Positions 4,301 to 49,555 of a DNA stretch of 64,000 bases are shown here, one piece after another. The notes below the pieces were generated by a model, which saw nothing but the letters and a program-made list of their open reading frames with translations, was not told where the DNA came from and made no database searches. How positions within the stretch are numbered: the stretch's first letter is position 1; each line of letters starts with the position of its first letter. Both the position numbers and the translations under genes were made by a program. This stretch comes from Leptogorgia sarmentosa (taxonomy: Eukaryota): positions 3,162,001 through 3,226,000 of the forward strand of contig OZ210885.1 of the NCBI GenBank assembly GCA_964658305.1, given 5' to 3'.

Positions 4301-5436
4301 ATATATCAGGTTCTTCTCTTCGCTCCATCTTAACTGACTCTTACTTTTATTAATTGGATTTGTTACCTGCATGGTCCGGCAATGACTACAATTATTGTGA
4401 TCGATTTGTTGATCAAATTGGACAAAAAACACGATAAAAATCTGCAAACGTTTGACTCAGGCTTCGAGGTGGAAAATCTGAATGCGTAATCATGCATTTT
4501 GACATTTTGTTTAAATCCCGGCGGTATATACATAAATGATAGTGCCATGTAGAATAAAAAAAATTGCCAGACTGCCTGTATATATACCATGCTACCGTTC
4601 TGTCTTTTAAACAATATGTAGATGTCCAGTTAAATTTTCAATATAATATGAACCACCAGACTTTTTAACTTTGGTTTACAGGGACTTTTCACAATTTCAA
4701 TTTTATGCCTGAATGAGATATAGCAGGGAGATTAGTTAAAATCTGGCCTCGTATAAAGGAGTTGCCATCTGAAATGGGATTCGAGTAATTAAATACGCGT
4801 ATTATTAGTAGGTGGTTTTCCACCAATGTGCTCATGTTTAGCCTACGTGACACAATGTTAATTTAACTCTTTATACTGGACCGATGTTAATTTAACAATT
4901 TATACACCAAATTTACTCATTATGGAGAGAAAATTAAATCTTCATCAAGGAGTTAAGGTCGTTTTATTTCTCCCACTCACACTGGCACCGCCCGCTCGAA
5001 ATTTTCGGGATTGCTTTGAAACTGATGATCTTTATCACGAATGAAATACCCGATTACTAAGAGACAGAGCAGTAATCATATCTGACCCAGGATTGTTGTG
5101 TTTATTTTGACAGATGGTCATTATAAATCTGCTCCAGGATCATTTTTGTTTTCTCTGCGCAATAACGATGACCTTCCACCATTCAAGGCTCCGATGAAAA
5201 ACAAGAATTACGTGCGTGCAATTTACCGTCACAATGGATATGGACCAACATTTGGTGGTGGTCACGACTTGTACATTGCCAACAATGCGAAAATAAACAC
5301 TTACTCCCACACGAATTTTGGTCACACCTACCAAGCTCCATCTGAATACACTTACGGCCAAGCCAACACATACTCCCTCTTGGCAGGAAGCTATAAATTC
5401 ACTCCATCAGAAGTCGAAGTCTTGTATCTAAATTAA
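1398..5436 (+). pseudogene. Copy 1 of PAN-cbEGF(x3)-TLDc gene; exon 1 lies upstream of the window; premature stop in the PAN exon
   Basis: Exons with GT-AG boundaries: 1398-1621 (PAN-like), 1728-1737 (microexon), 2417-2539, 2922-3044, 3719-3853 (cbEGF, DIDEC...), 4020-4262 and 5114-5436 (TLDc: [24 protein letters not shown] / [20 protein letters not shown]). TAA at 1499-1501 where the other copies have TAT. Bases 1-1397 match intron 1 of copy 5. Confidence 0.75.
1967..2138. mobile_element. 172-bp palindromic MITE with 8-bp TSD (hAT-type)
   Basis: Ends CAGGGCCGTCGCTAGAACG...CGTTCTAGCGACGGCCCTG; nearly the whole element is an inverted repeat. TCGTTACC is duplicated at 1959-1966 and 2139-2146. 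Copies 2 and 3 show the empty site (ctgttcgttacctatac). Confidence 0.93.
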
Positions 5437-7305
5437 AAACCTACTTCAACAATGCCATAAAGTAAATGATTTTAACATAAAGTAGAATATATACCGAAGA
5501 TGATTTGAAAAAAAGCCTACTCCCATGTAATCTCCATAATTGTAAAACACACCTCAATCAATTTTATAATTTAGGGAACTTTATATGTTTAGGGAACGTA
5601 AAAAGTTCGGCTTAGCAATCTATAAAGACTTCTTCCTAAAATACATAACAGCCCTAGACGTTTATTGCATCATTTACAGTAATTTTTTATAGAAAAGTAG
5701 ATAAAGTTTTGCTGTTGTAGCTATATCCAGACGCATTATCATGATAGATAGAATGGAATTCGTCCATGATCGAAATATTGTAGAAATGCCTCAACATAAC
5801 CAAAGAAAGGCAATAATTAACTAGACAAACACTCATACACTCGCCCAAATAGACAAACACTATTTAACAGTATTATTTAACATTGTATAATTATGGTTTA
5901 ATTTGTTAAATAAAAATTTGGGAAAATCATAGTTGTTTAAATATGTATCAAGAATTGTTTTACAATAATTGAACTGTACGACCAAACATGATCTACAAAA
6001 AAGTCCGTAAACTCGAAACCGAGACTGAATCGCAAATGAACAAAAAGAACATCGTGCTGTAAGATGACATGTTTTTGAGGTATGTTTGATTTTTTAATTG
6101 CATTTAATTTTCTTATTTTTGTGCATGGAATTAGAATTCAATACGAGTTTTTTTAAGCCCCAGGTTTCAGTGAATAGTGCTTTTTTATATCATTTGTATC
6201 GTGAACATTTTTTTAAAATATCAAGCGGGGTTCCATTTATTAATTAAATAATCATTGCTCAATTTGAATGAATCCGAAAACCCACCAAAGATGCAATTAG
6301 TTTAAGAACCTTTTTACGGCATTTCTTCGAAAAATGTAACAGAATGTCGATCGTTTCTGCCCGAATAGACTAGCATGCATACATCGTTTATCTATGTTTT
6401 GGTTTTGAAAAAGAACCTCGGAAAAATTGCATTCTTGCCGGTATTTATTTCCTTGGTTTGGAACAACCCCGAAAAATTTGAACAAACTGAAATTATTAGT
6501 CATAACGCGTCAGAATTCTAGGACTAGAAGACTAGCTTTTTCAGTCGAAACATATTCTTTAGCCTCGATCGGAAATGCTTTTTTTCATTATTCTCTCAAT
6601 TAGAAACGGGCTGGGCCGGGGGTTCATATATTTGGCAAGTTTAAGAATTTGTTTTACATTTTCGACTCAGGAAACGTCGAAGGCGAGGCATAATTCACTG
6701 CGAGACAACATTTTGGTTCATTGCGATACTTTAAGAGACACGTTGCCGCATTCAGGGGCCCTACAAAAGGGGGGGGGGGGGGGGGCATTCATCCAGCATA
6801 TCATAAACAGTTATCCTGCGCATACAAATATGTCCTAACCTATTTCATTCATATGAGCCGGGAGATGTTATTAACGTTAACTTAGAAATATATGTTGTAC
6901 AGGTGCGACATAATATTCAGATAAAACAGCCTAATGTTAGTATATAGTTCATCAAAGCAATATCTTCAGAGGTTTTTGGGATTGGGAATTCAATGGTGAT
7001 TAGGATATGACTAGGCGTACTCGATATTCGTCTTCACCCGTTTTCTTATATGGTTTTCAAGGAATTTAAGACATGTTTTGAATAAAACGCTCCGTGACCG
7101 CATTAACTGCTGGGCGCACTGATGGTTACAAATGCACAAATTTCAGTCTCCTGCGCACATTAGCCGGGGGGGGGGGGGTGATCCTGCATCTAACGTATTT
7201 GTCCTAAGGTTTAACGCGTTTACAGTAGGAAATTTAATAAATATCGGTCGCTGCATTTTCTTAGATCACGCAAACTTCTTCCACCATTTTTAACAGGGGA
7301 ACTAT

Positions 7306-7449
7306 CAGGGGCCTCGGGATATCAAAAATTAGGGGGGGGGCAAATATTCATATATTCGAAGTATTTGAAATCATCTGTTTTCAATGTCTGTTAACAAAAA
7401 TGTATGAATATCCCCCCCCCCCCCAATTATCGATTTTCCGCTGCCCCCA
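7306..7449. mobile_element. Decayed MITE resembling the 1967-2138 family, in the spacer
   Basis: CAGGGG...aaaattaggggggggcaaatattcata...tatgaatatccccccc aattatcg...gctgcccc, flanked by GGAACTAT and GGAACTCT (degenerate 8-bp TSD). Homologues lie near 18082, 29275 and 51528. Confidence 0.6.
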
Positions 7450-10039: not shown

Positions 10040-10077
10040 TATAAAAGTAGCCCAGCATACTACGATTTCATTCAGAC
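10040..10077 (+). promoter_or_regulatory. TATA box plus initiator-like motif of copy 2
   Basis: TATAAAA at 10040-10046 with TCATTCAGAC about 30 nt downstream, about 90 nt before the ATG. The same TATA is at 20889, 31211 and 53945. Confidence 0.65.
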
Positions 10078-10133
10078 AATTCGGACCGAAAAGCCTTGCC
10101 GAATCAACCTTTGGAATTCATCAATTTTAAAGA

Positions 10134-13100
10134 ATGAATTTTCTGGCATTGTTAATGGTGATGTTTCCGATGTCCATTGCACTGAAACCTGTTTCCAAAG
10201 ACGGAAAGACATGTTCTTGGAGACATTTCAAGAACGCCAGCTTGGGTAACTATTTTTTATATTAATTTGGGTTACAATTTTCATGTACACTCCACTTCGA
10301 GTTGAGCTGGCGCGTCATATCTTAACAGCCAAATTGTATTTGTATAGCATGCATAGGCATATAGCCTATTTCAGTTTAAACTCACTGATATATAATTTAT
10401 CATGATATGCGTGAATATCCGTCTAGATCGTTATCCGTTAGTTATGCTTGCCTCTACAGGCACTGCAGTTTAATGTTTGCATGCTGGAACCACATAAATT
10501 TTTGTTTCATGTGAAAGGCATATGATTTTTTATCCATGCACCTGCGATCGGTTGTACAAAGCGAGCTGAGGTCAGTAAGGTGCTGGCTCAATTGCTAGGG
10601 ACCTAAGTTTTTCAATTCCATCATTCAAGGCCATATCCTGGCTGTAATTTAATTTTTGGGATTTTCGGTTTTGCGGATTTGGTCAATTTTAGGACGATTT
10701 TTCGATTTTTGTGTCAAATAACTGCGGTTTTTCGGTTTCGGTAATTCTCCCGCGGTTTACGGTTTTTAAAGGTTTTAGCAGTCGGTTTTCGGTTTTCAAT
10801 TGAAATACTCATGGCCTTTCGGATTTGGTCTGGAATGTAATTTTCGGTTTCTATACCAGTCTGTTTACTTGGAAACTTCATAGAAAACTATTAATGATCT
10901 ACAGAAAATTTCTGAAGAAACATTTCTAAATTTTAAAGCAAATTGTTGGAGAATTTGCTCCGAAATTAAAGTTAACCCAGGGTTAAACTAACCGGCTTTT
11001 GAACAAAATCGGCCCCTGATTGCAAACAGATAGGGGCGGCTAAGTCACATGGCATCGGTGCAATTGTATTGAAAATTGATTCAGGCTAAACATTTATATA
11101 TATCTAAAGATCACAGAGAGGAGGCAAAGTACGAACGATTTATTAATTATTCTTATATCGGATCGCTTTGTTAGTTGCGTTACTATTTAACGTGTTGAAC
11201 AATACTATGAACTGTTGCATATGACTTGCATTGGTTAATGTATGTTAGTTACCTTTAGTTTTTTGCTATTATTCCGAACTCGCACGACTGATGAACATTG
11301 AATATAGTTTGAAATAAAACATCTGTCATTACTATTCCGCGCTATTCAACTGAAATCATCGAAGTTCCAAACTCCTGAAGCCTCTCAGGCGCGCTAAGTC
11401 ACCCCCCCCCCCCCCCCCCCCCCCCCGTAAGTCCAAGAATTGAAATCCAGATCTACAAAGGCCTAAACTCAAGATTGGCGCTTCCAGCAAACCGCTAACC
11501 GAAAGGGGCCAACTTCAAATCGTATTTTAAAGTAAGTTCTTCGGCAGGAAAGTGGATTATTCACGCTTAAATTTTCATTTACAAACCACCCCAACTTCGG
11601 ACAACGAACAGTTGATATTAATGTGCGAGAATTGAAGTTTGCCGTTTGCGGTTAACGTCAATCTAAAGTGCCTAATGTCAGTTTCACACTTTGTGTTTGT
11701 GTTCTTCGACAGGAAACCAAGCACTTCGTCCATCAAACTTGATCTCAAGTCACAACGTTGATCTTTTGGTAGAATGTCATCTTCATTGCGTAAATGCAGG
11801 CAATTGCTACGGTTATAACTTCAGAGTCAGACCTAGCAGTATTTATACAACCAACTGCCAGTTGAGTAACAGCTCCGTGAAAATGAACATGACCAAGATG
11901 AGGAATGGACCTTGGAATTTCTACGAGGATGTTTTGGTAAGAATAATATAACCAGCAAATGATCCTATATTCCACGAAAATTCGGGCCTCATTGAACTCA
12001 TCGCTGTACAATTCTCTTACCGTAAATTTTGTCACCCTATAGGTTACCAAAGGTAAGCGAAAATTATGAATTAATGCAGAGTCGTTCAATACAGGTAAAC
12101 GCATAAATAAATACATGCATAAACTTTCTACGTATATATTGAAAGATGAGACAAGATTCAACTTTTCAAGCAAAGGATCTTCTTGGGAGGATAGTTGTCA
12201 ATGCTAAGTTGAATTTTGTTTTATCGTTTACATAGTTGACGGAAAATTGATGTACTATAATTTGCTACTGTTCGTTACCTATACTGGTCACATACGTATA
12301 TCAAAATTATTCTGTAGCTAAATGTCGGCCGAGGTTACAAGTCCTTATTATGAGAATATTCAACATTCCTACTAAACCAAACATTTTAGGAAATAATTTT
12401 TGTATTGCTAAAGGATATATTGCATATATTGGTAATGAGGGGGCGGTGCCCCCATCCCAAGTTCAGCTTCAGCCCCTCCCGCCCCCCCCCCCCCCCTCCA
12501 CCCCCACAAAAAGAAATCCTGGTAAAAATCACGATATTTTAATTATTTCAGACATTGACGAATGTGCTCAGGATAGTCGCACATGTCATCCCAATGCAAC
12601 ATGTATCAACACTCCAGGTTCTTACGAGTGTCAGTGTAGAAGTGGATACACTGGAAATGGCCGCACTTGCGCAGGTATTGCTCATGATGCTTGTCATAAA
12701 AATGTAACCAGTTGCAATACTTATTTATTTATTAACTTTGCCAGATTTGAACAACGTTAACTCAAAAACTGGCAGGGCCTTCGCAACAGCTTGCGCCAAT
12801 TACTGCGATCCCTAAATGTTAGACAAATACACTATATACGTACATAGAAAGAATTAATTACTAACGAACTATCAGATGCAACTTTTCACATTGCGACCCG
12901 CAGAACCACTTCCATTTAGGTTGCAGTCTGGATTAGAAGACGTTCAAACCTTCACGATCCTAAACCTATTGCAACGTTTACAAATAATCCAAGTTACTTT
13001 CAGACAATCAGACCACATTGACTTGAATTGCTCCAGTTTTCGTTATCATGTTGCAGATATTGACGAATGTCTGGACAAGTCCAATCATTGCCACTCAAAT

Positions 13101-16091
13101 GCAAACTGCACAAATGCTGACGGTTCATACAAATGTAAATGCTCTCAAGGTTACCGAGGAAATGGACAGAATTGTACAGGTAAATATCAGGACAACTTTT
13201 GTTTTGTTGAAGGGCGCTTCAGATAAAATTTGGGCCCAGGAGAAAGTAAACTTGGGGAATGTGAAGTGTGAAGTTTCGGCACAAACTTAATGCTGCCGGT
13301 CTACAAACGTTTTGGAATTGTACTACGCAATCATTTGCAGTATCAGTGGCATTGTGATAATTATATTGCCATCGTGTAGATAACGGATAGCAACATCAAC
13401 AACTAACAAAAGTTCTAGTCTGTACTACTTAAATGATATAAACAGATTTGACGTTCGAGCAAAGGTCCACTGTCGGAAGTAATTACAGTCTAAAGGGGGG
13501 GGGGGGGTACAGTCTAAAGGGAAGGGGGGGGTGTTCAAGGTAAAGAATTTAATTACGTGCACGTTATCCACAATAGTTTTGCCAATGAGCCTTCAATAAG
13601 TATAAGTAACATCATAAGTAACATCAATGGTCACAAACGTTTATTTATCTTCTATCTTCTAGTATTTTTTACTGTTACTTCGTTCATTAAAATTTATTTC
13701 TCCTTTCTGGGGCCTTTTTTCCCCATTGAAGGCTCTGTTTAACAATTTAACTTCACACATTTTGTTTCACTTCGTCATTTGCTGCCAGAAATTTGTGAAA
13801 CAGAGAAAAATCAATTTGGACGTTACTATTATTTTTTAATTTTTCAGACATTGACGAATGTTCTGAAGGCAGCCATGGCTGTCACGCTGACGCAACCTGT
13901 GTCAACACTCCAGGATCATACAATTGCACATGTCCCAGTGGGGCATATATTGGCAGAAACAAATATTGCCAGAATCTCAAAGGTGATTTATTGTTTAGTG
14001 AGATTATTCAAGTTTCTTCGGTCAATGGTTATAAGCTAGAGTCTGGAGATGTGTTTCCATGTCTGGAAGGAACGTTAAATTCCTTTATCGTTAAATCATA
14101 GTTTAATAATAATAATGACAATAATATATTAAATTTATATTCCCTCAGTCGTGTCAGCGATATTGAAAAATGAACCAAACGAATTCGAGAATAAGTTGAG
14201 AGAATGGTTGCCAAGAACAGGAAATTGGAGAGTTTGTTGGCGAGCAACACGAGATCGTTGGGCTGCGAGTACATTCCATTCAAATTGTGATGGAAAATTA
14301 CCGACCTTAACTATTGTTCAAGTCAACAAAAACAGCAAAAAGTTTGTTTTCGGTGGTTATGCTACAGTATCATGGAAGCAGGGTATCTACCACAGCACCT
14401 GTAAGTTTGAAATGATTACAGTTATAAGAGTTATTATTTTAATCATGCATGTATCAGGTTCTTCTCTTCGCTCCATCTTAACTGACTCTTACTTTTATTA
14501 ATTGGATTTGTTACCTGCATGGTCCGGCAATGACTACAATTATTGTGATACAAACATTTGTTGATCAAATTGGACAAAAACACGATAAAAATCTGCAAAC
14601 TTTTGACTCAGGCTTCAAGGTGGAAAATCTGAATGCGTAATCATGCGTTTTGACATTTTGTTTAAATCCTGGCGGTATATACATAAATGCAGCCGTTGAA
14701 CAAAGACCTCAACGGGTAGTACCCAATATTTCTCAATTGAGAACACGGGTAATGCCCACGCTGGACTATCGCCTAAGCTTGCTGGTCGGCGTTTCAGTAT
14801 TACTCTTGATATAGTTATATAGTGTTAGATATAAACCATTTTTCTATATACTAAGAATTTCCTTAATCCCAACCCAAACCCTAGAATCCTAACCCTGACC
14901 ATTGTGGTCATAAAAATATTGAGAAAAAAAAGTTTTCATCACCAACGCTGAAAAAATGTGTCGTACTGGGGTTTGAACTATAGAACTGCAACGCACGCAC
15001 CGCGTGCCTTACCACTTGAGCTAAATCGAGCTCGCTGCTCAACACTCTGGCCTGGATAAATGCATATGATTATAGACCCGGGCAATCACTGTTCATAACT
15101 TACCTGGCCAGGCTACTTAGACGATAGTCCAGCGTGGGCATTACCCATGTTCTCAATTGAGAAATATCGGGTACTACCCGTTGAGGTCTTTGTTTAACGG
15201 GTGATCAATGATAGTGCCATGTAGAATAAAATAAATTGCCAGACTGCCATTATATACCACGATACCGTTCTGTCTTTTAAACATTATGTAGATGTCCAGT
15301 TAAATTTTCAATATAATATGAACCACCAGACTTTTTAACTTTGGTTTACAGGGACTTTTCACAATTTCAATTTTATGCCTGAATGAGATAGCAGGGAGGG
15401 GCTTCGTATAAAAGGAGTGCCATCTGAAATGGGATTCGAGTAATTAAATACGCGTATAATTAGTAGGTGGTTTTCCACCAATGTGTTCATGTTTAGCCTA
15501 CGTGGCACAATGTTAATTTAACTCTTTATACTGGACCGGTGTTAATTTAACAATTTATACACCAAATTTACTCATTATGGAGAGAAAATTAAATCTTCAT
15601 TCAGGAGTTACGGTCGTTTTATTTCTCCCATCCACACTGGCACCGCCCGCTCGAAAATTTCTGAATTGCTTTGAAACTGATGATCTTTATCACGACAAAA
15701 ATACCCGATTACTAAGAGACAGAGCAGTAATCATATCTGACCCAGGATTGTTGTGTTTATTTTGACAGATGCTCATTGGTCATCTGCTCCAGGATCATTT
15801 TTGTTTTCTCTGCGCAATAACGATGACCTTCCACCATTCAAGGCTCCGATGAAAAACAAGAATTACGTGCGTGCAATTTACCGTCACAATGGATATGGAC
15901 CAACATTTGGTGGTGGTCACGACTTGCACATTGCCAACGATGCGAAATCAAACACCAACTCCTACACGAGGTTTGGTCGCACCTACCAAGCTCCATCTGG
16001 ATACACTTACGACCAACCCATGACACAATCCCTCCTGGCAGGAAGCTATACCTTCACTCCATCAGAAGTCGAAGTCTTGTATCTAAATTAA
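10134..16091 (+). CDS. Copy 2: secreted PAN/apple-like + 3 cbEGF + TLDc protein, about 433 aa, intact
   Basis: Exons 10134-10245 ([18 protein letters not shown] signal-peptide-like), 11713-11936, 12043-12052, 12552-12674, 13057-13179, 13848-13982, 14149-14400, 15769-16091. All introns are GT-AG, phases are compatible, and the total is 1302 nt with no internal stop seen. Confidence 0.88.
10657..10855. repeat. CGGTTT-rich repeat in intron 1, probably a transposon subterminal fragment
   Basis: Multiple (T)CGGTTT motifs; homologous blocks at about 21508-21700, 33025-33220 and 55813-56010. No intact termini were recognised. Confidence 0.4.
14690..15203. mobile_element. 514-bp non-autonomous TIR element (about 90-bp imperfect TIRs, 7-bp TSD) in the last intron of copy 2
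   Basis: CAGCCGTTGAACAAAGACCTCAACGGGTAGTACCC... versus ...GGGTACTACCCGTTGAGGTCTTTGTTTAACGGGTG. Flanks are ATAAATG and ATCAATG. Copy 1 has the empty site (acataaatgatagtgcc). Confidence 0.9.
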
Positions 16092-19000
16092 AAACGTGCT
16101 TCAACAATGCCATAAGGTAAATAATTTTAACAAAAAGCAGGATATACGTAACTGATTTGAGAAATGCCTACTCCCACCTAAACTCCATGAGTACAAAACA
16201 CACCTCAAACAATTTTATAATTTAGGGAACTTTATATGTTTAGGGAACATAAAATTTCCGTGTCTAAAAATTGACAAGCCTTAGCAATCTATAAAGACTT
16301 CTTCCTAAAATACATAACAGCCCTAGACGTTTATTGCATCATTAATTTTACAGTAATTTTTTATAGAAAAGTAGATAAAGTTTATTTTGCTGTTGTAGCT
16401 ATATCCAGCCACATTATGATGACAGATAGAATGGAATTCGTCCATGAAATATTGTAGAAATGCCTCAACAGTCAACATAACCAAAGAAAGGCAATAATTA
16501 ACTAGACAAACACTCATACACTCGCCCAAATAGACAAACACTATTTGACAGTATTATTAAACATTGTATAATTATGGGTTAATTTGTTAAATAAAAATTT
16601 GGGAAAATCATAGTTGTTTAAATATGTATCAAGAATTGTTTTACAATAAACTGTACAACCAAACATGATCTACAAAAAAGTCCGTAAACTCGAAACCGAG
16701 GGTGAATCGCAAATGAACAAAAAGGACATCGTGCTGTAAGATGACATGTTTTTGAGGTATGTTTGATTTTTTAATTGCATTTAAATTTTTTATTTTTGTG
16801 CAAGGAATTAGAATTCAATACGAGTTTTTTTAAGCCCCAGGTTTGAATAGTGCTTTTTTATATCATTTGTATCGTGAACATTTTTTTTAAATATCAAGCG
16901 GGGTTCCATTTATTAATTAAATAATTATTGCTCAATTTGAATGAATCCGAAAACCCACCAAAGATGCAATTAGTTTAAGAACCTTTTTACGGCATTTCTT
17001 CGAAAAATGTAACAGAATGTCGATCGTTTCTGCTCGAATAGACTAGCATGCATACATCGTTTATCTATGTTTAGGTTTTGAAAAAGAACCTCGGAAAAAT
17101 TGCATTCTTGCAGGTATTTATTTCCTTGGTTTGGAACAACCCCGAAAAATTTGAACAAACTGAAATTAAGTCATAATGCATCAGAATTCTAGGACTAGAA
17201 GACTGGCTTTTTCAGTCGAAAGATATTCTTTAGCCTCGATCGGAAATGCTTTTTTTCATTATTCTCTCTAGCTATAAGAAACGGGCAGGGGTGGGGGTCA
17301 TATATTTGGCAAGTTTAAGAATTTGTTTTACATTTTCGACTCAGGAAACGATGAAGGCGAGGCATAATTCGCTGCGAGACAACATTTTGGTTCATTGCGA
17401 TACTTTAAGAGACACGTTGCCGCATTCAGGGGACCTGCAAAAGGGGGGGGGGGGCATCCAGCAGATCATACACAGTTATCCTGCGCATACAAATATGTCC
17501 AAACCTATTTCATGCATATGAGCCGGGAGATGTTATCAACTTAGAAATAACGAATGATGCACCTTAATATTCAGATAAAACAGCCTAATGTTAGTATATA
17601 GTTCATCAAAGCAATATCTTCAGAGGTTTTTGGGATTGGGAATTCAATGGTGATTAGGATATGACTAGGCGTACTCGATATTCGTCTTCACCCGCTTTCT
17701 TAAATGGTTTTCAAGGAATTTAAGACATGTTTTGAATAAAACGCTCCCTGACCGCATTAACCGCTGGGCGCCCTGATGGGGCCAATGAATTATTGGGGCC
17801 CAAACATCTTCGGTGGTCAGTTACAAATTCATAAATTTCATTCTCCTGCGCACATTATCCGGGGGGGGGGGGGGGGAGGGGGCTGGGAGTGTGGAGATCC
17901 TGCCGGCTGCCGTCTAACGTATTTTGTCCTACTTGTGTCGCTTTCATTTTAATCATAATATCCTTGAATCGCAAGGGTTATAATTATAAGGTTTAACGCG
18001 TTTACAGTAGGAAATTTAATAGGTATCGGTCGCTGCATTTCCTTAGATCACGTACTTTCACCATTTTTAACAGAGGAACTATCAGGGGACGCAGAATATC
18101 AAAAATTAGGGGGGGTGGCAAATATTCATATATTCGAAATATTTTGAAATCATCTGTTTTCAATGTCTGTGAACAACAATGTATGAATAACCCCCGCCCC
18201 AATTATCGATTTTCCGCTGCCCCCAGGAACTCTTATCGAGCCAACTATAATTTTCTCAAATTATTGTTTCGCAGTACATAAAACCGAGGTTTGCAAACTC
18301 TTTTCAATGAGGAAGAAGGAATCATGATATTTATGGTTCATTGCATGGATGCGGTGCTTTCTATTGATAGGTGGTGCGTGCAGGTTCAGTTTGCTATTCA
18401 AAATCATGAAAGAAAAAGCGAGGGGGGGAGGGGGTTATCTGCTTTTCTGTATAATGTAGACTTTTCAGCCTAATAAGTAAGTGTAAGGCTTTTAAGTTAA
18501 AACGCTTGACTGCCAAATTTGAGCTTAACTTTTCAATTTTTTAAGAACTTTCCAGTTGAAGAAGTCAATTAAGCTTGTTGCTATGTTGAAAAATATTTGC
18601 AGAGGTAGTTAATCATGCTTCGTCGTAAGCAATATAGCTGCACCTGCCACAATTAAGACGCTCGTAATAAAGACTTGTGTTAACTTAACTCCGAGTTACA
18701 CGGTCAGTTGACAATTGCCAACGAAAAAAAATACGCTGGCTGTTAATCGACATGCATTTTGTTTTCGTGCCTGATCTCAAACATTTTTTTAATTTGTTCC
18801 ATTTATAACCCGGCATGGTTCTCATTATTTTGATCTAGTCCTGCACGTATTTCTCAACAGACACCTTACTGGAATACATGAATATCAACATATAATTTTG
18901 GATTTCCTCATTGTTATCGTGTTTTGTCATTGTTGTCATATTTGAAATCATTTGTTTTCAATGTCTGTTAACACCAATGTATGAATCCCCTCCCCCCATT

Positions 19001-34200: not shown

Positions 34201-37200
34201 ACAGTTAACTGCCAGTTGAGTAACAGCTCCGTGAAAATGAACATGACAAAGATGAGAAATGGATCTTGGATTTTCTACGAGGATGTTTTGGTAAGAATAA
34301 ACATAATCCTGAATTGTGAGGGATTTGTACAGGGATAATTTCGGCATTACCAAATGATTCTATATTGGAGGAAAATTCTACGTCTATAAAACGGCCTCCG
34401 CGTTGAACTCGTCGCTGCACGATTTTCTTACCGTAAATTTTGTCACCCCATAGGTCACTAAAGGTAAGCAAAAATTATGAATTGATGCAGAGTCCTTCAA
34501 TACAGGTAAACGCATAAATAAATAATTCGATAAACTTATTTCATGAATTATTGAAAGCTAGACTGAGGATGCCACTTTTCGAGCAGAGGATCTTCTTGGG
34601 AGGGAGGATAGTTGTCAAGGCTAAGTTGAATTTTGTTGTATCGTTTAGACAGTGGACGGAATCTTGATGTAGGCTACTATAATCCTATTGTTCACTACCT
34701 ATGCTACATACATACCTAAAAATTGCTATTTATTATCATAAGACTTAGTGTTATATAGAATGCTTTGGTCTGAACAGCCTTTGTTTCTTTAGCTTTGTCC
34801 TTGGACTTGCATGTAACTTTTGACTGCCTAAGTTTGGCAAGGACCTATTAGTACAGTCGAATTGGAAAATTTTCACGATATTAATTTTGATTATTTCAGA
34901 CATTGATGAATGTGCTCAGGAAAGTCACACATGTCATTCCAATGCAACATGTATCAACACTCCAGGTTCTTACGACTGTCAGTGTAGAAGTGGATACACT
35001 GGAAATGGCCGCACTTGCACAGGTAAATACGTCGCCATTCTTTTCTTCCATATTCAACTTAATAGGGAATGTGGGACCTCTCAGGCGCGTTTTTTACCAT
35101 TCTTTTAATTATTTCAGACGTTGACGAATGCTCTCAGGATAGTCACACATGTCATTTCAATGCAACATGTATGAACACTCCAGGTTCTTACGACTGTCAG
35201 TGTAGAAGTGGATACACTGGAAATGGTCGCACTTGTGCAGGTACTTGATATTTGTGATAAAAATTGTAACTAGTAGCATTACTAATGGTGCATATAAGTA
35301 GGATGCGCTATTGCAACGTTTACATTTACTTTCAGACAATCAGACCACATCAACTTGAATTAGATTAATGAGCTCGTTCATTTTGTCATTATGTTACAGA
35401 TATTGACGAATGTCGGGACAATTCCACACATTGGGACTCGAATGCAATCTGTACAAATACTGACGGTTCATACAAATGTAAATGCAATCAAGGTTACCGA
35501 GGAAATGGACAGAATTGTACAGGTAAATATCGAAACTGTTGTTTTGTATAATGGTAGCAATCTACAGGCAGGGCGCTTCAGATAAAATTTGGGCCCAGGA
35601 GAAAGTAAACTTGGGGACTGCATGTGAAGTCAGAAGTGTGAAGTTTCGCGACACTGATTTGCTGCCGGTCTACAAACGCCTTGGAAATTAGACTAAACAA
35701 TCATTTGAGAACAGCGATTCTATTTTAAAACAACTTAGCTATATAAATTTCATTTAAATTGCCTTTTGCTAGCGCTTCCTCTGCCGCGTTACATTATTCA
35801 GACGAATTGTGAAGTGATGTACAGTATGTAACTTCTCAATTTATTCCCTAAAGCAGTAATAACGCGCGTTTAACAAAAAAAGAGCGGTTTCTTTTGGTAT
35901 CGTATGCTAATATATTATGAGCACTTTAATAGCTAGTGCTGTGCACTGACAAGTACATATAGTATTAAAGCAGGGACGTAAATATCAAAGATGGCTGGGG
36001 TGAGGTGTTCATGAAAATCAGACCGACCAATTGCTGATATGCGAATTTAGACCGACTACAGCTAAAACCAGTTAATACTACCAATACCTGTTTTTTACGA
36101 AAAATATATATACAATGTATTTTATAGTTGTGATGTAACGGTTTGTAGTTTGTAGCAACGGTTAAAGAGGTGTAGCCATCCAAAGATATTCGGTCGGTCT
36201 CATCAAGTACCTTTAATTGTTTATGATTTATTTTCAGACTAAGTCTAATCAATTTTGAGACCGACTATAACATTTTACTGGCGGGAGGAGGTATGTTTCA
36301 CCCCCCCCCCCCCTCCCTCACACCCCACCACCACAGTTACGCCCCAGAGCTCATATGCGCAGTCTTGCTACGGAACGAAGCCAATACGAGCATGCATGCG
36401 TCATTAGTATTGTGTACTTGTTTACATCTTAATATCATTATATGAATTGGAATATTATAATTTTTCTTGTTAATTCATTCATTCAAATTTACTTCTCCAT
36501 TCTGGAACTTTTTCCCATTTGAAGTATACGATATGTATTTCGGTGATCATGGCCGCGCAAATACGTTAATATTTTTATTCATGTATGAGAAACTGTTTGG
36601 ACATTAAGGAAATCTAACTTTCGTTAGCTTTTTAGACAGTCATTTATTTGCGATCTAGTTCCATAAGTTTTATTCAAACAGGTCATGAAATTAGTTGATC
36701 ACTGTATGCTCGCTTGTCAGCAATCCCTTTTTCTTCCATGGATGTTTCTTATAGTTATAATTATTCAGTTTTTAACGAATCTATGATTCTTGCAGCTAAT
36801 TATGGTGAAGCATCGAAGAGTACAATAAAGAGCAGAAATATAAAATAATTTAGACAAGATCTAGAAACAAAATAAATAACTTCGTAAGATTTTATTTAAT
36901 TTGTTTAACTTCGTCATTTGTTTCAAGAAATTTGTTAAACTGAAAAATTTATGACTTTCCTATTTTTAATTTTTCAGACATTGACGAATGTTCTGAAGGC
37001 AGCCATGGCTGTCACGCTGACGCAACCTGTAACAACACTCAAGGATCATACAATTGCACGTGTCCCAGTGGAAAATATTGCAAGAACATCAAAGGTGATT
37101 TATTTTGTAGTGAGATTAATATGTATTCAAGTTTCTTTGGTCAATTGTTAAGAGAGTGGAGATGTGTTTCCATGTGTGCAAGGAACGTTAAATTCCTTTA

Positions 37201-40013
37201 TCGAATGTTAATTTTTGTCTAAACAAAATAATTGGTTTAATAATAATAATAATAAGCATTGATTTTCTATATTCCTGTCTGACATTGTTTGGGTAAATTT
37301 ATATTCACTCAGACGTGTCAGGGATATTGAAAAATGAACCAAACGAATTCGAAAAGAAATTGAAAGAATGGGTGCCGAAAACAGGAGATTGGAGTATTTG
37401 TTGGCGAGCAACGCGAGATGGTTTGGCTGCGAGTACATTTCATTCAAATTGTGATGGAAAATCACCAACCATAACTATCGTTCAAGTTATCAAAAACAGC
37501 AAAAAGTTTGTTTTCGGCGGTTATGCTACAGTGCCATGGGGGAGCTCCAGTAAGTTTGAAATGATTACAGTTATGTGAGTTACTATTTTAATCATGTATT
37601 AGGTTCTTATAATCTTCTCTTCGCTCCATCTTAACTGACTCTTACTGAACGACTATTTTATTAATTGGATTTGTTATCTGCATGGTCCGGCAATGACTAC
37701 AATTATTGTGATACAAACATTTGTTGATCAAATTTGACAAAAACATGATAAGAATCTGCTAAACGTTTGTCTCAGGCTTCAAGGTGAAAAATCTGAATGC
37801 GTTATCATGCATTTTGATGCATGCATGACATTTTGTTTAAATCCTGGCGTTATTTATGAATGTACAGTCTACAGTGCCCTGTAGTATAAAATGAATTGCC
37901 AATATATATACCATGATACCGTTCTGTCTTTAAACATGCAGCTATAGATGTCCAGGTAAATTTACAACTTCAATAATATGAACCAGCATACTTTTTAACT
38001 TTGGTTTACAGGGACTTTTCATAATTTCAATCTTATGCCTGAATGAGATAGCAGGGAGATTATTTAAAATCTGGCCTCGTATAAAGGAGTGCCATCTGAA
38101 ATGGGATTCGAGTAATTAAATACGCGTATTATTAGTAGGTGGTTTTCCACCAATGTGCTCATGTTTAGCCTACGTGGCACAATGTTAATTTAGCTCTTTA
38201 TACCGGACCGGTGTTAATTTAACAATTTATCACATCAAATTTACTCATTATGGAGAAAAAATTAAATCTTCATTCAGGGAGTTAAGGTCGTTTAATTTCT
38301 CCCATTCACACTGGCACCGCCCGCTCGAAATTTTCGGGATTGCTTTGAAACTGATTATCTTTATCACGACTGAAATACCCGATTACTAAGAGACAGAACC
38401 AGGGGCCGCGGAAGCACCTCAAAAGTGCGGGGGGTGGGGAGGGGGGGCACATTAAAAAAAGGGCACGGATGAAAAAGGGCACTTTCCTTTCAAAAAAGGC
38501 ACATTTACCCTTTGTCCAAAATTGTGGGGGGGGGGGGGGCACTTGCCCCCAATGCCGTAAAATACTGACATTAATGATTAATTACATTATTATATCAAGC
38601 GCACACTATATGACACAAAAGGCCCTATATAACACAAAAAGGGCACAAATCTAATCGAAAAAAGGGCATATTTTCTCGTTTTCAAAAAGTGGGGGAGAAC
38701 CGTGCCCCAGTACCCCCCCCCCCCCCCCTGTTCCGCAGTAATCATATCTGACCAAGGATTATTGTGTTTATTTTGACAGATGGTGCAGGGGTGGCGCCAG
38801 AAATTCCCCGACAGGGGGGCTATGGACCCCGACAGGGGGGCTGAGCCATTATGCTCTCGTGGCCACGCCCCAAAATTGTTATTTAAACGTTACATTTCCC
38901 ATGCAATTTTGACAACGTGTAGAATGGTATAATACACTATTAAACTATCGTACATATAGTTTAATAATTCTATACCAATGAATGAACAATTAATTTACAA
39001 ATTGAAAACAGAAAGCTAGGAACCGTATGAGGAATTCATCAAATGAATTTCTTTGTACTATAAATGATTTGATGGAAGACTTTAGGAAGTAATTTGTATT
39101 AGCTTTTTAGAATATTTTACAGCAATTACTATAAAACACATATAAACAGGCAACATTAACAGAAAAATATCACGCCATGGAATGTTCAACATTACGTTCA
39201 GAGTGCAATTCTACATTTAGGAAACCTAGCTTTGAACCTGTCAACTACAGTGTCTAAGTCCAGTTTGCTCCCTCGATCGCGATGAATTCCTAGCATCATC
39301 AGGCTGTCTAAACGTTCCTGTGCCATCACTGATCGAAGATCGTTCTCTATTAGCCGCATTGAGCTGAAGGTCCGGAAAGCGACTGGCGACAGCGGTTATA
39401 ACGCGCGCAAACTTTTATTTAAAGTTTAATTAAAGTATCTGTTCTCTGACATAAGATAAGGATTGGTAAAACGTTTTATCTTGTACAACGTTCATAAGAC
39501 AATATCTGTCAGAAGACATAATTCTAATGGCTACAAGCGTATAAGTACAACTGTCGTAACTTTCATCTTAATAATATATCTCCTGTTCTGTTCCCCGACG
39601 AATTGTCAGATTTTCCCCGACAGGGGGGCTAGGGTTCCCCGACGGGGGGGCTGTAGCCCCCCCTGCCCCCCCTCTGGCGCCACCCCTGAGATGGTGATTA
39701 CACATCTGCTCCAGGATCATTTTTGTTTTCTCTGCGCAATAAGGATAACCTTCCACCATTCAAGGCTCCGCTGAATGGCCGGAATGACGGGTATGCAATT
39801 TGGCATCACAGTGGATATGGACCAGTATTTGGTGGTGGTAGCGACTTGTACATTGCCAACGATGCGAAATCAAACACAAACTCCTACACGAATTTTGGCC
39901 ACACCTACCAAGCTCCATCTGGATACACTTACGACCAAGCCAACACAAAATCCCTCCTGGCAGGAAGCTATTCCTTCACTCCATCAGAAATCGAAGTCTT
40001 ATATCTAAATTAA
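31297..40013 (+). CDS. Copy 4: PAN-cbEGF(x4)-TLDc paralog; last-exon acceptor interrupted by a transposon (about 463 aa if the element is spliced out)
   Basis: Exons 31297-31408, 34067-34290, 34454-34463, 34900-35022, 35118-35240, 35400-35522, 36978-37094, 37313-37549. The terminal TLDc exon 39691-40013 is displaced from its original acceptor (38778-38779) by a 903-bp insertion. Confidence 0.72.
31948..32140. mobile_element. About 190-bp MITE in intron 1 of copy 4
   Basis: TIRs CAGGGCCGCCCAGAG and CTCTGGGCGGCCGTG; flanks TAAATTAC and TAACTTAC (degenerate 8-bp TSD). Confidence 0.75.
38400..38736. mobile_element. MITE-like insertion with truncated right TIR, in the last intron of copy 4
   Basis: Absent from the other copies (agacagagcagtaatc). 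It starts CAGGGGCCGCGGAA, ends TTCCGC (partial inverted match), and has internal AAAGGGCAC repeats. Confidence 0.7.
38786..39688. mobile_element. 903-bp non-autonomous hAT-type element at the acceptor of copy 4's last exon
   Basis: Perfect 16-bp TIR CAGGGGTGGCGCCAGA / TCTGGCGCCACCCCTG; 8-bp TSD AGATGGTG at 38778-38785 and 39689-39696; subterminal CCCCGACAGGGGGGCT repeats; no transposase ORF. Confidence 0.95.
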
Positions 40014-43334: not shown

Positions 43335-43433
43335 CTCGACCTCCCAAACTAGGCCCAATTCTTCACGAATCTGAACGGGAAATTCACCTCGAACAGGGGA
43401 TCTGCATGACGGGATATTGGCAACCGGCTCAAG

Positions 43434-43494: not shown

Positions 43495-43531
43495 AAGTAA
43501 AGTTTGGGCAATGAACGAAATATTTCGGAAA

Positions 43532-46500
43532 ATGGAGTTTCTTTTGTTTTTATCGGTGATGCTGCCATTGATCACTGCTTTGAGACCTTCAGAAGACGGA
43601 AAACCATGTACTCAGAGACATTTCAAGATGGCCTGTTCGGGTAATTATTTCAACATTATTACTTTCCACTTTTAATTGGCTTTTTGACGCCTTCGTAAAA
43701 CGTCGAACTGATATGATATTACGCTACCACGAAATTACTTTTTTATTGTCTATTCCAATTACGAAGTTGTTGCAAAAACGGAATCCTACATTTTATCTTG
43801 GGGATGAATTTTCTTATCATTTGGATAGAGACGATAAAGAATATTGTTTTTGTCTCAAGTGTTCATACTTTTGTCATTCTTGCATGCAGAAATAATAATA
43901 TAAAAATCACTTAATTACTGGGTGTGAAAATCTAATTATAAGGCTGATAAAATATACAGTATAGTGATATTGAGCCATTGAATTGGGAACATGCAAGAAC
44001 AACAGGTTGCGTGCTTGCACTGTAAGTCAAAAACAATGTTAAATTCACGACCTATTTATGGAATTGCATCTTCACGTGACAGCGAAAAATTTTATTTTAG
44101 TTTTGCAGTCAGCGCCATCCTATGTATTGTCGTTAGTTTTTTGTTGTTCATTTCTAAATTATTTTTATTATTTTTTTTCCTCAGCACGCTTTTTATTTTG
44201 TATGTTTTGAAGTCCTTGTGCGGAAATGTTAAATAGAATCTGTTTGACAATAACACAAAATACACTGAGAATATATGGACACAACGTCATTTATTTATGT
44301 GCAAGTTTGAGAATGCTAAAGCGTGCGTTCCACAGACTATACAATGCTTATTTAATATTTGGCCAAAACAGCAAACCGGTCGATAAACTAAAGTTTTATA
44401 GAACTCGCAGATAGTGTAAATGTGCGACTTGGTGTTCGATTCAACAAACATTTACAGACACTAATGAACGTCTGTGTTTTATCATATTAATTTTTGACCT
44501 TATTTGTCGTTTCAGACTGAAATCCTTGCACAACTGGGCGCTGGTGCATGTATGATAAGAGAAACTTAAGACTCATGATTTGTTGGTCGATAAACTAAAG
44601 TTTTGTACAACTCGCAGATCTTGTAAATGCGCGACTTCGTATTCGGTTCACATTCATATGTGTTTCTTTTAATTTTTCTGACAGACTGAAATCCTTGCCC
44701 AACTGGGCGCGGGTGCATGTATGATAAGAGAAACAGTTGGTCGTAAAATTCATCCAAAATAAATGTTCAGCTAAGCTAGCGCTGTGTGCATTACAAATGT
44801 TACAAATATATACTTTGAATACAGATATACTTAGTATATACTTTGCATAACTTGACGCAGGTGCATGCATAAATAAGACAAACTTAGACTAATGACCTGT
44901 CGGTCGTAAAATACATCCGAATTAAATGTTCAGCTAAGATACGTACATTATAAATAATTATTTTAAATACTACATGTTTTAGACTGGAATGTACTTTGAA
45001 CAACTGGGCAACTGACATCGCAAATATGTCCATGCTAAAGCTCTATAAAACAGCTATATTTTAACCCTATTTTTATTTGATAGCTCCAAAACTTCATTTC
45101 CTTCAGAGGCGCACCATGAGTGTCAATTTCAACGCATGTTGTGTTTTTTGACAGGAAACCAAGCACTTCGCCCATCAAACTTGATCTCAAGTCACAACGT
45201 TGATCTTTTGGCAGAATGTCATCTTCATTGTGTAAATGCAAGCAATTGTTACGGTTATAACTTCAGAGTCAGACCTAGCAGTGTTTATACAGTCAACTGC
45301 CAGTTGAGTAACAGCTCCGTGAAAATGAACATGACAAAGATGAGAAATGGATCTTGGAATTTCTACGAGGATGTTTTGGTAAGAATAAACATAATCCTGA
45401 TTTGTGAGGGATTTGTACAGGGATAATTTCGGCATTACCAAATGATTCTATATTGGAGGAAAATTCTACGTCTATAAAACGGGCCTCCGCGTTGAACTCG
45501 TCGCTGCACGATTTTCTTACAGTAAATTTTGTCACCCCATAGGTCACTAAAGGTAAGCAAAAATTATGAATTGATGCAGAGTCCTTCAATACAGGTAAAC
45601 GCATAAATAAATAATTCGATAAACGTATTTCATGAATTATTGAAAGCTAGTCTGAGGATGCCACTTTTCGAGCAGAGGATCTTCTAGGGAGGGAGGATAG
45701 TTGTCAAGGCTAAGTTGAATTTTGTTGTATCGTTTAGACAGTGGACGGAATCTTGATGTAGGCTACTATAATCCTATTGTTCCCTACCTATGCTACATAC
45801 ATACCTAAAAATTGCTATTTATTATCATAAGACTTAGTGTTATATAGAATGCTTTGGTCTGAACAGCCTTTGTTTCTTTAGCTTTGTCCTTGGACTTGCA
45901 TGTAACTTTTGACTGCCTAAGTTTGGCAAGGACCTATTAGTACATTCGAATTGGAAAATTTTCACGATTTTAATTTTGATTATTTCAGACATTGATGAAT
46001 GTGCTCAGGAAAGTCACACATGTCATTTCAATGCAACATGTATGAACACTCCAGGTTCTTACGACTGTCAGTGTAGAAGTGGATACACTGGAAATGGTCG
46101 CACTTGTGCAGGTACTTGATATTTGTGATAAAAATTGTAACTAGTAGCATTACTAATGGTGCATATAAGTAGGATGCGCTATTGCAACGTTTACATTTAC
46201 TTTCAGACAATCAGACCACATCAACTTGAATTAGATTAATGAGCTCGTTCATTTTGTCATTATGTTACAGATATTGACGAATGTCGGGACAAATCCAATC
46301 ATTGCGACTCGAATGCAAACTGTACAAATACTGACGGTTCATACAAATGTAAATGCAATCAAGGTTACCGAGGAAATGGACACAATTGTACAGGTAAATA
46401 TCGAAACTGTTGTTTTGTATAATGGTAGCAATCTACAGGCAGGGCGCTTCAGATAAAATTCGGGCCCAGGAGAAGTTAAACTTGGGGACTGCATGTGAAG

Positions 46501-49500
46501 TCAGAAGTGCAGAAGTTTCGCGACACTGAACTTGCTGCCGGTCTACAAACGTTTAGGAAATTAGACTAAACAATCATTTGAGAACAGCGATTCTATTTTA
46601 AAACAACTTTGCTATATTTCATTTAAATTCGCTTCCTCTGCCGCGTTACATTATTCAGACGAATTGTGAAGTGATGTATGTAACTTCTCAATTTATTCAC
46701 AAAAGCAATAATAACGCGCGTTTAACAAAAAAAAGAGCGGTTTCTTTTGGTATCGTATGCTAATATATTATGGGCACTTTAATATAGTGCTGTGCTCTGA
46801 CAAGTACATATAGTATTAAAGCAGGGACGTAAATATCGAAGATGGCTGGGGTGAGGTGTTCATGAAAATCAGACCGACCAATTGCTGATATGCGAATTTA
46901 GACCGACTACAGCTAAAACTAGTTAATACTACCAATAACTGTTTTTTTACGAAAAATATACAATGTATTTTATAGTTGTGATATAACGGGCTGTAGTTTG
47001 TAGCAACGGTTAAAGAGGTGTAGCCATCCAAGATATTCGGTCGGTCTCATCAAGTAATTGTTTATGATTTATTTTCAGACTGAGTCTAATCAATTTTGAG
47101 ACCGACTATAACATTTTATTGGCGGGAGGGGGTATGTTTCACCCCCCCCCCCCCCCCCTCACACCCCACCACCACAGTTACGCCCCAGAGCTCATATGCG
47201 CAGTCTTGCTACGGAACGAAGCTGAATTAGAATATTATAATTTTTCTTGTTAATTCATTCATTCAAATTTACTTCTCCATTCTGAAACTTTTTCCCATTT
47301 GAAGTATACGATATGTTTTTCGGTGATCAAGTACGCGCAAATACGTTAATATTTTTATTCATGTATGAGAAACTGCTTGGACATTACCGTTTTAGACAGT
47401 CATTTATTTGCGATCTAGTTCCATAAGTTTTATTCAAACAGGTCATGAAATTAGTTGATCACTGTATGCTCGCTTGTCAGCAATTCCTTTTTCTTCCATG
47501 GATGTTTCTTATAGTTTTTCAGTTGTTAACGAATCTATGATTCTTGTAGCTAATTATGGTGAAGCATCGAGCAGTTCAATAAAGAGCAGAAATATAAAAT
47601 AATTTAGACAAGATCTAGAAACAAAATATATAACTTCGTAAGATCTTATTTAATTTGTTTAACTTCGTCATTTGTTTCTAGAAGTTTGTTAAACTGAAAA
47701 ATTTATGACTTTCTTATTTTTAATTTTTCAGACATTGACGAATGTTCTGAAGGCAGCCATGGCTGTCACGCTGACGCAACCTGTAACAACACTCAAGGAT
47801 CATACAGTTGCACGTGTCCCAGTGGAAAATATTGCCACAACATCAAAGGTGATTTATGTTTTAGTGAGATTAACATGTATTCAAGTTTCTTTGGGTCAAT
47901 TGTTAAGAGTGTGGAAATGTGTTTCCATGTCTGGAAGGAACGTTAAATTGTTTTATCGAATGTTCATTTTTCTCTAAACAAAATAATTAGTTTAATAATA
48001 ATAATGACAATAATAATAATCATATATTACTATATACCTTACTATATATGCCTGACTGAAATTGTTCGGTTAAATTTATATTCACTCAGACGTGTCCGAG
48101 ATATTGGAAAATGAACCAGTAGAATTCGAGAATAAGTTGGGAGAATGGTTGCCGAAAACAGGAAATTGGAGCATATGTTGGAGAGCAACACGAGATGGTT
48201 GGGCTGCGAGTACATTTCATTCAAATTGTGATGGGAAATTACCGACCATAACTATCGTTCAAGTCATCAAAAACAGCAAAAAGTTTGTTTTCGGCGGTTA
48301 TGCTACAGTATCATGGAGGAGCTACTACAACTGTAAGTTTGAAATGATTACAGTTATATGAGTTATTATTTTAATCATGTATTAGGTTGTTATAATCTTA
48401 TCTTCGCTCCATCTTAACTGACTCTTACTTTTATTAATTGGATTTGTTACCTGCATGGTCCGGCAATGAATAAAATTATTGTGATACAGAGATTTGTTGA
48501 TGAAATTGGACAAAAACACGATAAAAATCTGCCAAAAGTTTGTCTCAGGCTTCAAGGTGAAAAATCTGAATGCGTTATCATGCATGTTGATACATGCATG
48601 ACATTTTGCTTAAATCCCGGCGTTATTTATGAACGTACAGTCTGCAGTGCCCTGTAGTATAAAATAAATTGCCAGTATATATACCATGATACCGTTCTGT
48701 CTTTAAACATGCAGCTATAGATGTCCAGGTAAATTTACAACTTCAATAATATGAACCAGCATACTTTTTAACTTTGGTTTACAGGGACTTTTCATAATTT
48801 CAATTTTATGCCTGAATGAGATAGCAGGGAGATTAGTTAAAATCTGGCCTCGTATAAAAGGAGTGGCATCTGAAATGGGATTCGAGTAATTAAATACGCG
48901 TATAATTAGTAGGTGGTTTTCCACCAATGTGTTCACGTTTAGCCTATACGTGGCTGCCACGACGTGGCACAATGTTAATTTAACTCTTTATACTGGACCG
49001 GTGTTAATTTAACAATTTATCACATCAAATTTACTCATTATGGAGAAAAAATTAAATCTTCATTCAGGAGTTAAGGTCGTTTTATTTCTCCCATCCACAC
49101 TGGCACCGCCCGCTCGAAATTTTCTGAATTGCTTTGAAACTGATGATCTTTATCACGACTGAAATACCCGATTACTAAGAGACAGAGCTGTATATCATAT
49201 CTGACCCAGGATTGTTGTGTTTATTTTGACAGATAATCAATGGTCATCTGCTCCAGGATCATTTTTGTTTTCTCTGCGCAACAAAGATGACCTTCCACCA
49301 TTCAAGGCTCCGCTGAAAAGCGTGAACAGCGGGCACGCACTTTGCTGGCGCAGTACACATGGACCAACATTTGGTGGTGGTCACGACTTGTACATTGCCA
49401 ACGATGCGAAATCAAACACCAACTCCTACACGCATTTTGGTCACACCTACCAAGCTCCATCTGGATACACTTACGACCAAACCAACACACGATCCCTCCT

Positions 49501-49555
49501 GGCAGGAAGCTATTACTTCACTCCATCAGAAGTCGAAGTCTTGTATCTAAATTAA
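43532..49555 (+). CDS. Copy 5: secreted PAN-cbEGF(x3)-TLDc protein with a divergent (type B) signal exon, about 423 aa, intact
   Basis: Exons 43532-43640 ([19 protein letters not shown]; an in-frame upstream ATG lies at 43511), 45155-45378, 45543-45552, 45989-46111, 46271-46393, 47732-47848, 48090-48332, 49233-49555. Total 1272 nt, GT-AG throughout, no stop seen. Confidence 0.88.

Follow-up and report, generated by a model that had tools for sequence, protein, structure and literature searches.

We hold it likely that the window, by which we mean the whole 64-kb stretch of DNA analysed here, contains a tandem array of PAN-EGF-TLDc genes whose last exon has been diversified by selection together with exchange between paralogs, and whose variable loops probably form a binding surface. 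A first-pass annotation had described a patchwork of short variant cassettes in that exon and ascribed it to gene-conversion shuffling. Such shuffling does occur, though on a modest scale and in a familiar form; as judged from the sequences, diversifying selection, which that annotation missed, is the stronger signal. It is the predicted-secreted, diversifying TLDc family that is worth following.

Self-comparison and exon modelling across the window revealed six head-to-tail paralogs with a repeat unit of about 10-12 kb, all on the + strand (Table 1). The exon order in each gene is signal-peptide-like, PAN-like, a 10-nt microexon, three to four EGF exons and two TLDc exons, the last two jointly encoding one TLDc domain in the exon models. 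The predicted microexon restores the reading frame in all six copies by joining a phase-0 PAN-like exon to a phase-1 EGF exon. The Pfam TLD profile (PF07534) matched three of three TLDc exon pieces at 30.5-36.1 bits, above its curated cut-off of 24.5; the EGF exons are of the calcium-binding type (EGF_CA), and the PAN-like exon scored 21 bits in the profile search, slightly below the cut-off of 21.4. Instead of the layout of intracellular TLDc proteins (LysM, GRAM, TBC, EF-hand-like, or TLDc alone), the genes combine a hydrophobic N-terminus with PAN-like and EGF_CA exons. Because the N-terminal hydrophobic stretch is accompanied by EGF and PAN domains, and because no second hydrophobic stretch or transmembrane segment was found in the open models of copies 2 and 5, the array proteins are predicted to be secreted. 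The end of the first TLDc exon differs among copies (exon length 237-252 nt), so that the loop at the exon junction varies in both length and sequence. The array also holds a local duplicate of 2.0 kb, 99% identical, at 41347-43334.

Table 1. Positions of the gene copies, their exons and the shared tracts in the window.
Feature	Position	Strand	Description
Copy 1	1398..5436	+	PAN-like, microexon, three EGF and two TLDc exons
Copy 2	10134..16091	+	Open 433-aa model, canonical splice sites throughout
Copy 3	20983..26887	+	Open coding exons; GT>GA change in first splice donor (21095-21096)
Copy 4	31297..40013	+	Four EGF exons; insertion near start of last exon
Copy 5	43532..49555	+	Open 423-aa model, canonical splice sites
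Copy 6	54031..64000	+	Open as far as visible; last exon from 63824, ends with the window
Predicted 10-nt microexon	12043..12052; also 1728, 22846, 34454, 45543, 57240	+	AG..GT-bounded in 6/6 copies
Last exon, copy 1	5114..5436	+	Pfam TLD 36.1 bits; second half of TLDc
Last exon, copy 2	15769..16091	+	Pfam TLD 30.5 bits
Last exon, copy 3	26565..26887	+	From exon modelling
Last exon, copy 4	39691..40013	+	Downstream of insertion
Last exon, copy 5	49233..49555	+	From exon modelling
145-nt tract, copy 1	5127..5271	+	Identical to 15782..15926 of copy 2; contains YVRAIYRHN
145-nt tract, copy 2	15782..15926	+	Identical to 5127..5271 of copy 1
WS micro-tract, copies 2/5	15777..15817 (core 15778-15781) = 49241-49281	+	Largest possible span 41 nt
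3' flank, copy 2 with copy 5	16098..16411	+	11/11 informative sites
Intergenic tract, copy 2 flank with copy 5 flank	17351..19642	+	33/33 informative sites
903-bp element	38786..39688		Terminal inverted repeats, 8-bp target duplication; at start of copy 4 last exon

Lesions occur in three of the five complete copies (1, 3 and 4), and at least two copies (2 and 5) are open. Copies 1 and 3 had already been called disabled, and the lesions in question, an in-frame TAA at 1499-1501 and the altered donor at 21095, are indeed present in the assembly. Copy 4 is probably disabled by its insertion, a 903-bp element which we take to be hAT-like; read-through that starts at the original acceptor ends at a stop 21 codons further on, and the only acceptor regenerated is a GAG. 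This insertion is absent from the first-pass annotation. All lesioned copies are full-length genes with one lesion each. Copy 1 probably has its first exon a short way before the window begins, and positions 13-1966 of the window match the first intron of copy 5 in self-comparison. The first exon of copy 5 is divergent (about 71% identity to copies 2, 3, 4 and 6), and copy 2 is the most mosaic copy of the array.

The five complete last exons are each 323 nt long and free of indels; among them 68 of 324 positions vary and 18 are parsimony-informative. Every motif named earlier can be found in these exons, but the eight supposedly independent cassettes represent only five characters (codons 2-5, dividing the copies 13|25|4; codons 18/28; codons 33-41; codon 68; codon 82), and exchange inside the exon is required for two. 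GQAN, assigned to copies 1 and 3, and DQ, assigned to copies 2, 4 and 5, come down to a single G/A site (5357/16012/26808/39934/49476). YVRAIYRHN (copies 1 and 2) and NDG (copies 3 and 4), listed separately before, are alternative states of one stretch of codons; a state resembling NDG occurs in copy 6 and in the homolog P0003, which makes the NDG type look ancestral. GHYK and WSS are likewise two states of codons 4-5. The NKD..KAPL motif of copies 4 and 5 is no cassette, the NKD lysine being encoded by AAG in copy 4 but by AAA in copy 5, and the KAPL leucine is also present in copy 6. TRF in copies 2 and 3 amounts to 2 nt and is consistent with the sister relation of these copies upstream, where they show 23 differences in 2684 nt (0.9%) and 1% in the adjacent intron. 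The apparent patchwork thus comes mostly from retained ancestral states, from motifs counted twice and from recurrent change at codons under strong selection; a patchwork read from motifs overstates recombination where few codons are hypervariable.

One exchanged tract is shared by copies 1 and 2. It covers exon nt 14-158 and includes the most variable loop; other pairs of copies show 8-25 differences there. Outside the tract, copies 1 and 2 show 5 differences in the first 13 nt and 20 in nt 159-320. This identical run spans 33 of the 68 polymorphic sites (global p 0.0002). Copies 2 and 5 have four adjacent letters in common at codons 4-5, within a span of no more than 41 nt. No difference separates copies 1 and 3 over exon nt 1-95 (global p 0.009 by site permutation, 0.11 by codon-block permutation), which is best read as their background state.

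The closest partner of copy 2 also changes along the array. Comparison of copies 1, 2, 3 and 5 gives 87 informative sites in 18 runs, with 17 partner switches against 44.8 under permutation (p 0.0002). Copy 2 goes with copy 3 through intron 7, with copy 5 at codons 4-5 and with copy 1 in mid-exon; after the exon it goes with copy 5 in the 3' flank, then with copy 3, and again with copy 5 for 2.3 kb. The flanks of copies 2 and 5 differ at 11 positions in 2403 nt over 17092-19500. Because the non-coding flanks change partner as well (p 0.0002), the exchange is array-wide, and selection cannot mimic such long non-coding runs. The exchange had been placed within the last exon, a restriction for which there was no significant support: of the adjacent pairs of informative sites, 5 of 13 within the exon and 12 of 73 beyond it carry a partner switch (Fisher p 0.12), and an exon-specific recombination hot spot is accordingly unsupported. 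As regards the suggestion that disabled copies act as sequence donors, the tract shared by copies 1 and 2 fits it, but nothing marks these copies as dedicated donors, and they can donate as any paralog can. Unless the assembly is chimeric, exchange between copies is statistically supported by these comparisons.

Such a chimera, in which part of one paralog or allele was overwritten by reads of another, is an unlikely alternative. The 145-nt tract is about as long as one short read, and the 99%-identical 2.0-kb duplicate noted above might be a misjoin. We compared the window with the contigs of 7 of 19 listed sequencing runs; 14 of the 19 hold part of the stretch, all as assembled contigs, none is recorded as RNA, and summed depth was not taken as copy number. 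In run X9, from a 2023 study, a 123-nt contig equals 5142-5264 with 0 differences, so the tract shared by copies 1 and 2 exists in another study. No listed contig joins the tract to both flank sets, and contigs of k-mer-scale resolution cannot do so. Zero depth was recorded in X9, a run of unrecorded library kind, over intron positions 5040-5107, which three other runs cover. The private 3' letters of copy 1 were hardly seen in four runs. The same positions vary in four of four runs, one of them with another species label, and both states of the G/D site are present in all four. Against a chimera stand the exons, which lack indels and stops and differ almost entirely by non-synonymous changes at loop codons, unlike errors, and the copies themselves, which are marked by shared insertions and kb-scale tracts; moreover, while a tract could be produced by an artefact, the signal of selection could not. 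In run X1, as many as 26 contigs differ from copy 1 at a single position, so there are more variants than the window holds; the family is likely to be larger than the window, and tract donors may lie outside it.

The first-pass annotation had named recombination tests as the check on its proposal. We used our own PHI-like and GENECONV-like implementations rather than the published programs, and a null obtained by fitting codon models and simulating the exon along a single tree, hypervariable codons included. Among 15 trees for the last exon, the best needs 30 steps vs a minimum of 20, an excess of 10 that is not significant beside the 6.3-6.9 simulated (p 0.10-0.14); nor does the Hudson-Kaplan bound exceed the null (6 vs 7.0 simulated, p 0.70). 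Total homoplasy and Hudson-Kaplan Rm were rejected as proof of recombination, both lying within the no-recombination null. Conflict is spatially clustered, however (PHI-like p 0.003-0.01), adjacent conflicting sites number 3 vs 0.12-0.14 expected (p 0.0007-0.002), and the longest identical run (p <=0.0007) was reached by none of 1500-2000 simulations, including those with multi-nucleotide changes. The best tree also changes between segments of the exon. With copy 6 added (167 nt usable), significance was lost: the PHI-like test gave p 0.18-0.61 and the run test was borderline (global p 0.06). The check thus succeeded for runs and clusters and failed for homoplasy and Rm; shuffling survives in that form, without the raw incongruence and the eight cassettes on which it had been argued.

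A single tree with no exchange within the exon, the motifs being due to convergence at hypervariable codons and to shared ancestral states, would account for six of the eight motifs and would agree with the total homoplasy and Rm, which match the null. The W and Y states of codon 4 do recur in the distant homologs P0003 and P0007. We nevertheless regard this explanation as very unlikely, since it leaves copies 1 and 2 with 0 differences over the tract beside 20 in nt 159-320, is beaten by the run and cluster statistics even when multi-nucleotide changes are simulated, and does not extend to the mosaic non-coding flanks.

In templated donor-cassette systems such as chicken Ig and vlsE, one expressed locus undergoes somatic, directional conversion from truncated silent donors. 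A programmed or somatic process of this kind, with disabled copies serving as donor cassettes, would suit the three lesions among five complete copies and the copy-1-type tract in copy 2, whose background is copy-5-like on both sides. Unlike those systems, the array has at least two open full genes, its lesioned copies are whole genes rather than trimmed cassettes, and introns and intergenic DNA have been exchanged equally, with no significant concentration in the exon (p 0.12); we give the idea very little weight. The exchange is more readily ascribed to germline gene conversion or unequal crossover, which is the likely route. In one haplotype, conversion and double crossover are indistinguishable.

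In the last exon pN/pS exceeds 1 in all 10 pairs of copies (1.6 to infinite), six of these pairs having Fisher p <0.05, and the pairs are non-independent. Between copies 2 and 3 there are 22 non-synonymous changes and no synonymous one (p 0.0007), and the intact copies 2 and 5 give a pN/pS of 2.9 (p 0.016). An amino-acid change accompanies 38 of the 44 variable codons. Site models, fitted with one synonymous rate to five sequences of which three are probably disabled, place about 20-26% of codons at omega 14-17 (p <1e-6, also with split trees); the M2a vs M1a likelihood-ratio statistic was 52-57 on two trees, and 28-39 when each of three segments had its own tree and when multi-nucleotide changes were permitted. 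Eleven codons exceeded 0.9 on both trees (2, 4, 5, 31, 33, 35, 39, 40, 68, 87 and 95). The first TLDc exon carries no selection signal (omega 0.4, LRT 0.14; pN/pS 0.29-0.55 between groups), and within the TLDc pair positive selection is confined to one exon. In the split-tree fit the purifying class vanishes and 80% of codons are neutral; since three of the five sequences are probably disabled, relaxed constraint contributes. Decay of unconstrained copies, with the amino-acid excess due to lost function or a locally high mutation rate, draws on the three lesioned copies, the loss of the purifying class in the split-tree fit and the assumption of one synonymous rate, but it is highly improbable, as neutral decay leads to a ratio of 1 rather than 2-3 overall or 22:0, and there are no frameshifts, the upstream exons are conserved (omega 0.4) and the excess is present in the intact pair as well.

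Under selection combined with paralog exchange, point mutations at some 11-15 loop codons would be favoured, and misaligned recombination among neighbours that are 87-99% alike would move loop variants between copies, giving new loop combinations through tracts of at most 41 nt to more than 2 kb. The same ectopic recombination would also rearrange introns, first exons and EGF number, while copies would be gained and lost by birth and death, the deaths coming through point lesions and insertions. The driver, by analogy, is probably a changing binding partner, whether a microbe, a symbiont or non-self tissue. That the partner is microbial or non-self, and the role one in immunity or recognition, has in our estimate roughly an even chance.

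The fold was modelled on homolog P0004, which is 69% identical in the last exon, from a 32-row alignment (pLDDT 93.7). In this model the domain has a TLDc fold: six rows with Z 14-19.8 are all TLDc structures and the next row reaches 4.4, the best match having Foldseek E 3e-8, Z 19.8 and rmsd 2.1 over 160 aligned residues. A fibrinogen-like fold gave weak rows only (Foldseek E >=0.1, Z about 3) and was rejected. The columns that are near-invariant among homologs are mostly invariant among the copies as well, and most selected codons sit in loops or short strands of the modelled secondary structure. In mEAK-7, Tyr341, Pro316 and Gln317 are described, in the part of the source available to us, as V-ATPase contacts (PMC9263379). 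A weak alignment (E 0.05) puts Tyr341 at codon 35, one of those under selection, and Pro316/Gln317 within the variable loop at the exon junction; the remaining contacts map to the unreliable part of that alignment. From these two positions, the variable loops may correspond to the ancestral TLDc binding face.

Several known systems resemble the array in part. Zebrafish NLR-B30.2 genes are presented, in the available part of 10.1101/027151, as tandem paralogs with high dN/dS in the exon for the C-terminal domain, and short conversion tracts are proposed there to recombine single replacements between paralogs. The array shares with that description the tandem paralogs, the selected C-terminal domain exon and the exchanged tracts; unlike these intracellular vertebrate proteins, which are encoded by hundreds of genes, its products are predicted-secreted PAN-EGF-TLDc proteins.

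In Hydractinia, conversion or unequal crossover reportedly shuffles exons between Alr2 and neighbouring pseudogenes, as Gloria-Soria is said to have described in 2012. Positive selection on one face of the Alr2 binding domain is documented in the portion of PMC8282982 at hand. As far as that portion goes, the array is alike in being cnidarian and in having a selected domain and exchange among paralogs that include lesioned copies; in contrast to Alr2, a transmembrane Ig-like protein with tested homophilic binding, it has no transmembrane segment, a different fold and a predicted function. The array belongs to neither the NLR-B30.2 nor the Alr2 family.

Canonical TLDc proteins (OXR1, NCOA7, TBC1D24, mEAK-7 and TLDC2) appear, in the accessible parts of three sources, as conserved, few and intracellular V-ATPase binders (PMC9263379, PMC8329711, PMC13570293). 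The array shares with them the Pfam family, the fold of the P0004 model and, in two regions, an alignment of mEAK-7 contacts to variable positions. Unlike them as so described, it is tandem and fast-evolving, with signal-like, PAN-like and EGF exons and about 20% identity. Conversion combined with diversifying selection in a tandem family is a textbook process; the apparent novelty is that the variable module is a predicted-secreted TLDc domain. A literature search of main texts, mostly open-access, yielded no account of secreted or cnidarian diversifying EGF-TLDc families, and coral proteome tables could list them. An octocoral venom paper (PMC11896702) had 0 matches to 'TLD' in its main text, and a 2026 TLDc review had 0 to 'secreted', 'extracellular' and 'EGF'.

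A bolder and rather doubtful proposal is that anthozoans turned an intracellular, V-ATPase-binding TLDc domain into a secreted, variable recognition module, whose binding face would have been diversified and recombined among tandem paralogs. If it were true, corals would have an undescribed polymorphic repertoire for immunity or self-recognition. Coral recognition molecules are poorly known, and the family offers 11-15 codons and natural chimeras for tests of binding specificity.

Relatives outside the window were found by the last exon, for which the best named homolog comes from the octocoral Dendronephthya gigantea (69%), out of 69 matches among 213 candidate longer proteins. The window itself is therefore likely to come from an octocoral. 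The D. gigantea proteins P0004, P0012, P0029 and P0019 are 51-69% identical in this exon; these EGF-TLDc relatives are automatic annotations, for which we found no description of selection, exchange or function. Anthozoan relatives have the same EGF and TLD architecture, and an Atlas cluster counts 62 cnidarian members. Three of the named D. gigantea proteins give a hint of a gene cluster.

Among the six tandem genes of the array (copies 1-6), two types of first exon and first intron can be distinguished (at 43532-43640 and 13-1966), one carried by copies 1 and 5 and the other by copies 2, 3, 4, and 6, with the first exons of the two types being approximately 71% alike. This division is discordant with that of the downstream regions, which separates copies 1-3 from copies 4-6, and promoter swapping is possible. 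The sequence just after the stop codon was also compared between copies. Its first 100 nt (16092-16191 and equivalents) differ by 13-17% in most copy pairs and by 5% between copies 2 and 5; this divergence is higher than that of the introns.

The first EGF exon of copy 5 looks like a hybrid of the duplicated EGF exon pair present in copies 4 and 6, as judged from sequence resemblance: its 5' part resembles the first exon of that pair, while its 3' part and flank resemble the second. Such a pattern is the kind of product that unequal crossover would leave. Copies 4 and 6 each have an EGF exon (35400-35522 and 58184-58306) whose second cysteine is replaced by tryptophan.

Features of the array and their positions in the window
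Feature	Position	Remarks
Palindromic insertion, 172 bp	1967-2138	copy 1 only
Predicted microexon, 10 nt	1728, 12043, 22846, 34454, 45543, 57240	all six copies; between PAN-like and EGF exons
Element, ~510 bp	14690-15203, 25486-25999	88-nt inverted ends; common to copies 2 and 3
Element, 903 bp	38786-39688	terminal inverted repeats, 8-bp target duplication; just inside copy 4 last exon
Stretch, 2.0 kb	41347-43334	38467-39312 joined to 40208-41346; 99% identity
First EGF exon of copy 5	45989-46111	hybrid-looking
Insertion, ~2.6 kb	60762-63403	last intron of copy 6
Tandem repeat, 7 nt	60794	part of copy 6 insertion
Palindrome, 600 bp	62624-63226	part of copy 6 insertion

The first-pass annotation listed copies 1 and 3 as disabled and left out copy 4, though the 903-bp element probably disables that copy as well. 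The 2.0-kb stretch downstream of copy 4 is a local duplicate that does not contain the last exon, and it represents either a recent duplication-deletion or a misassembly. The element common to copies 2 and 3 has very high contig depth in the sequencing-run contigs.

Related TLDc domains are also found at the end of proteins of collagen-Ig, Ig-Sushi, Sushi, and B-box architecture (P0031, P0115, P0178, P0099, P0020, and P0106), which indicates that, like B30.2, the TLDc subtype seen here behaves as a promiscuous C-terminal module.
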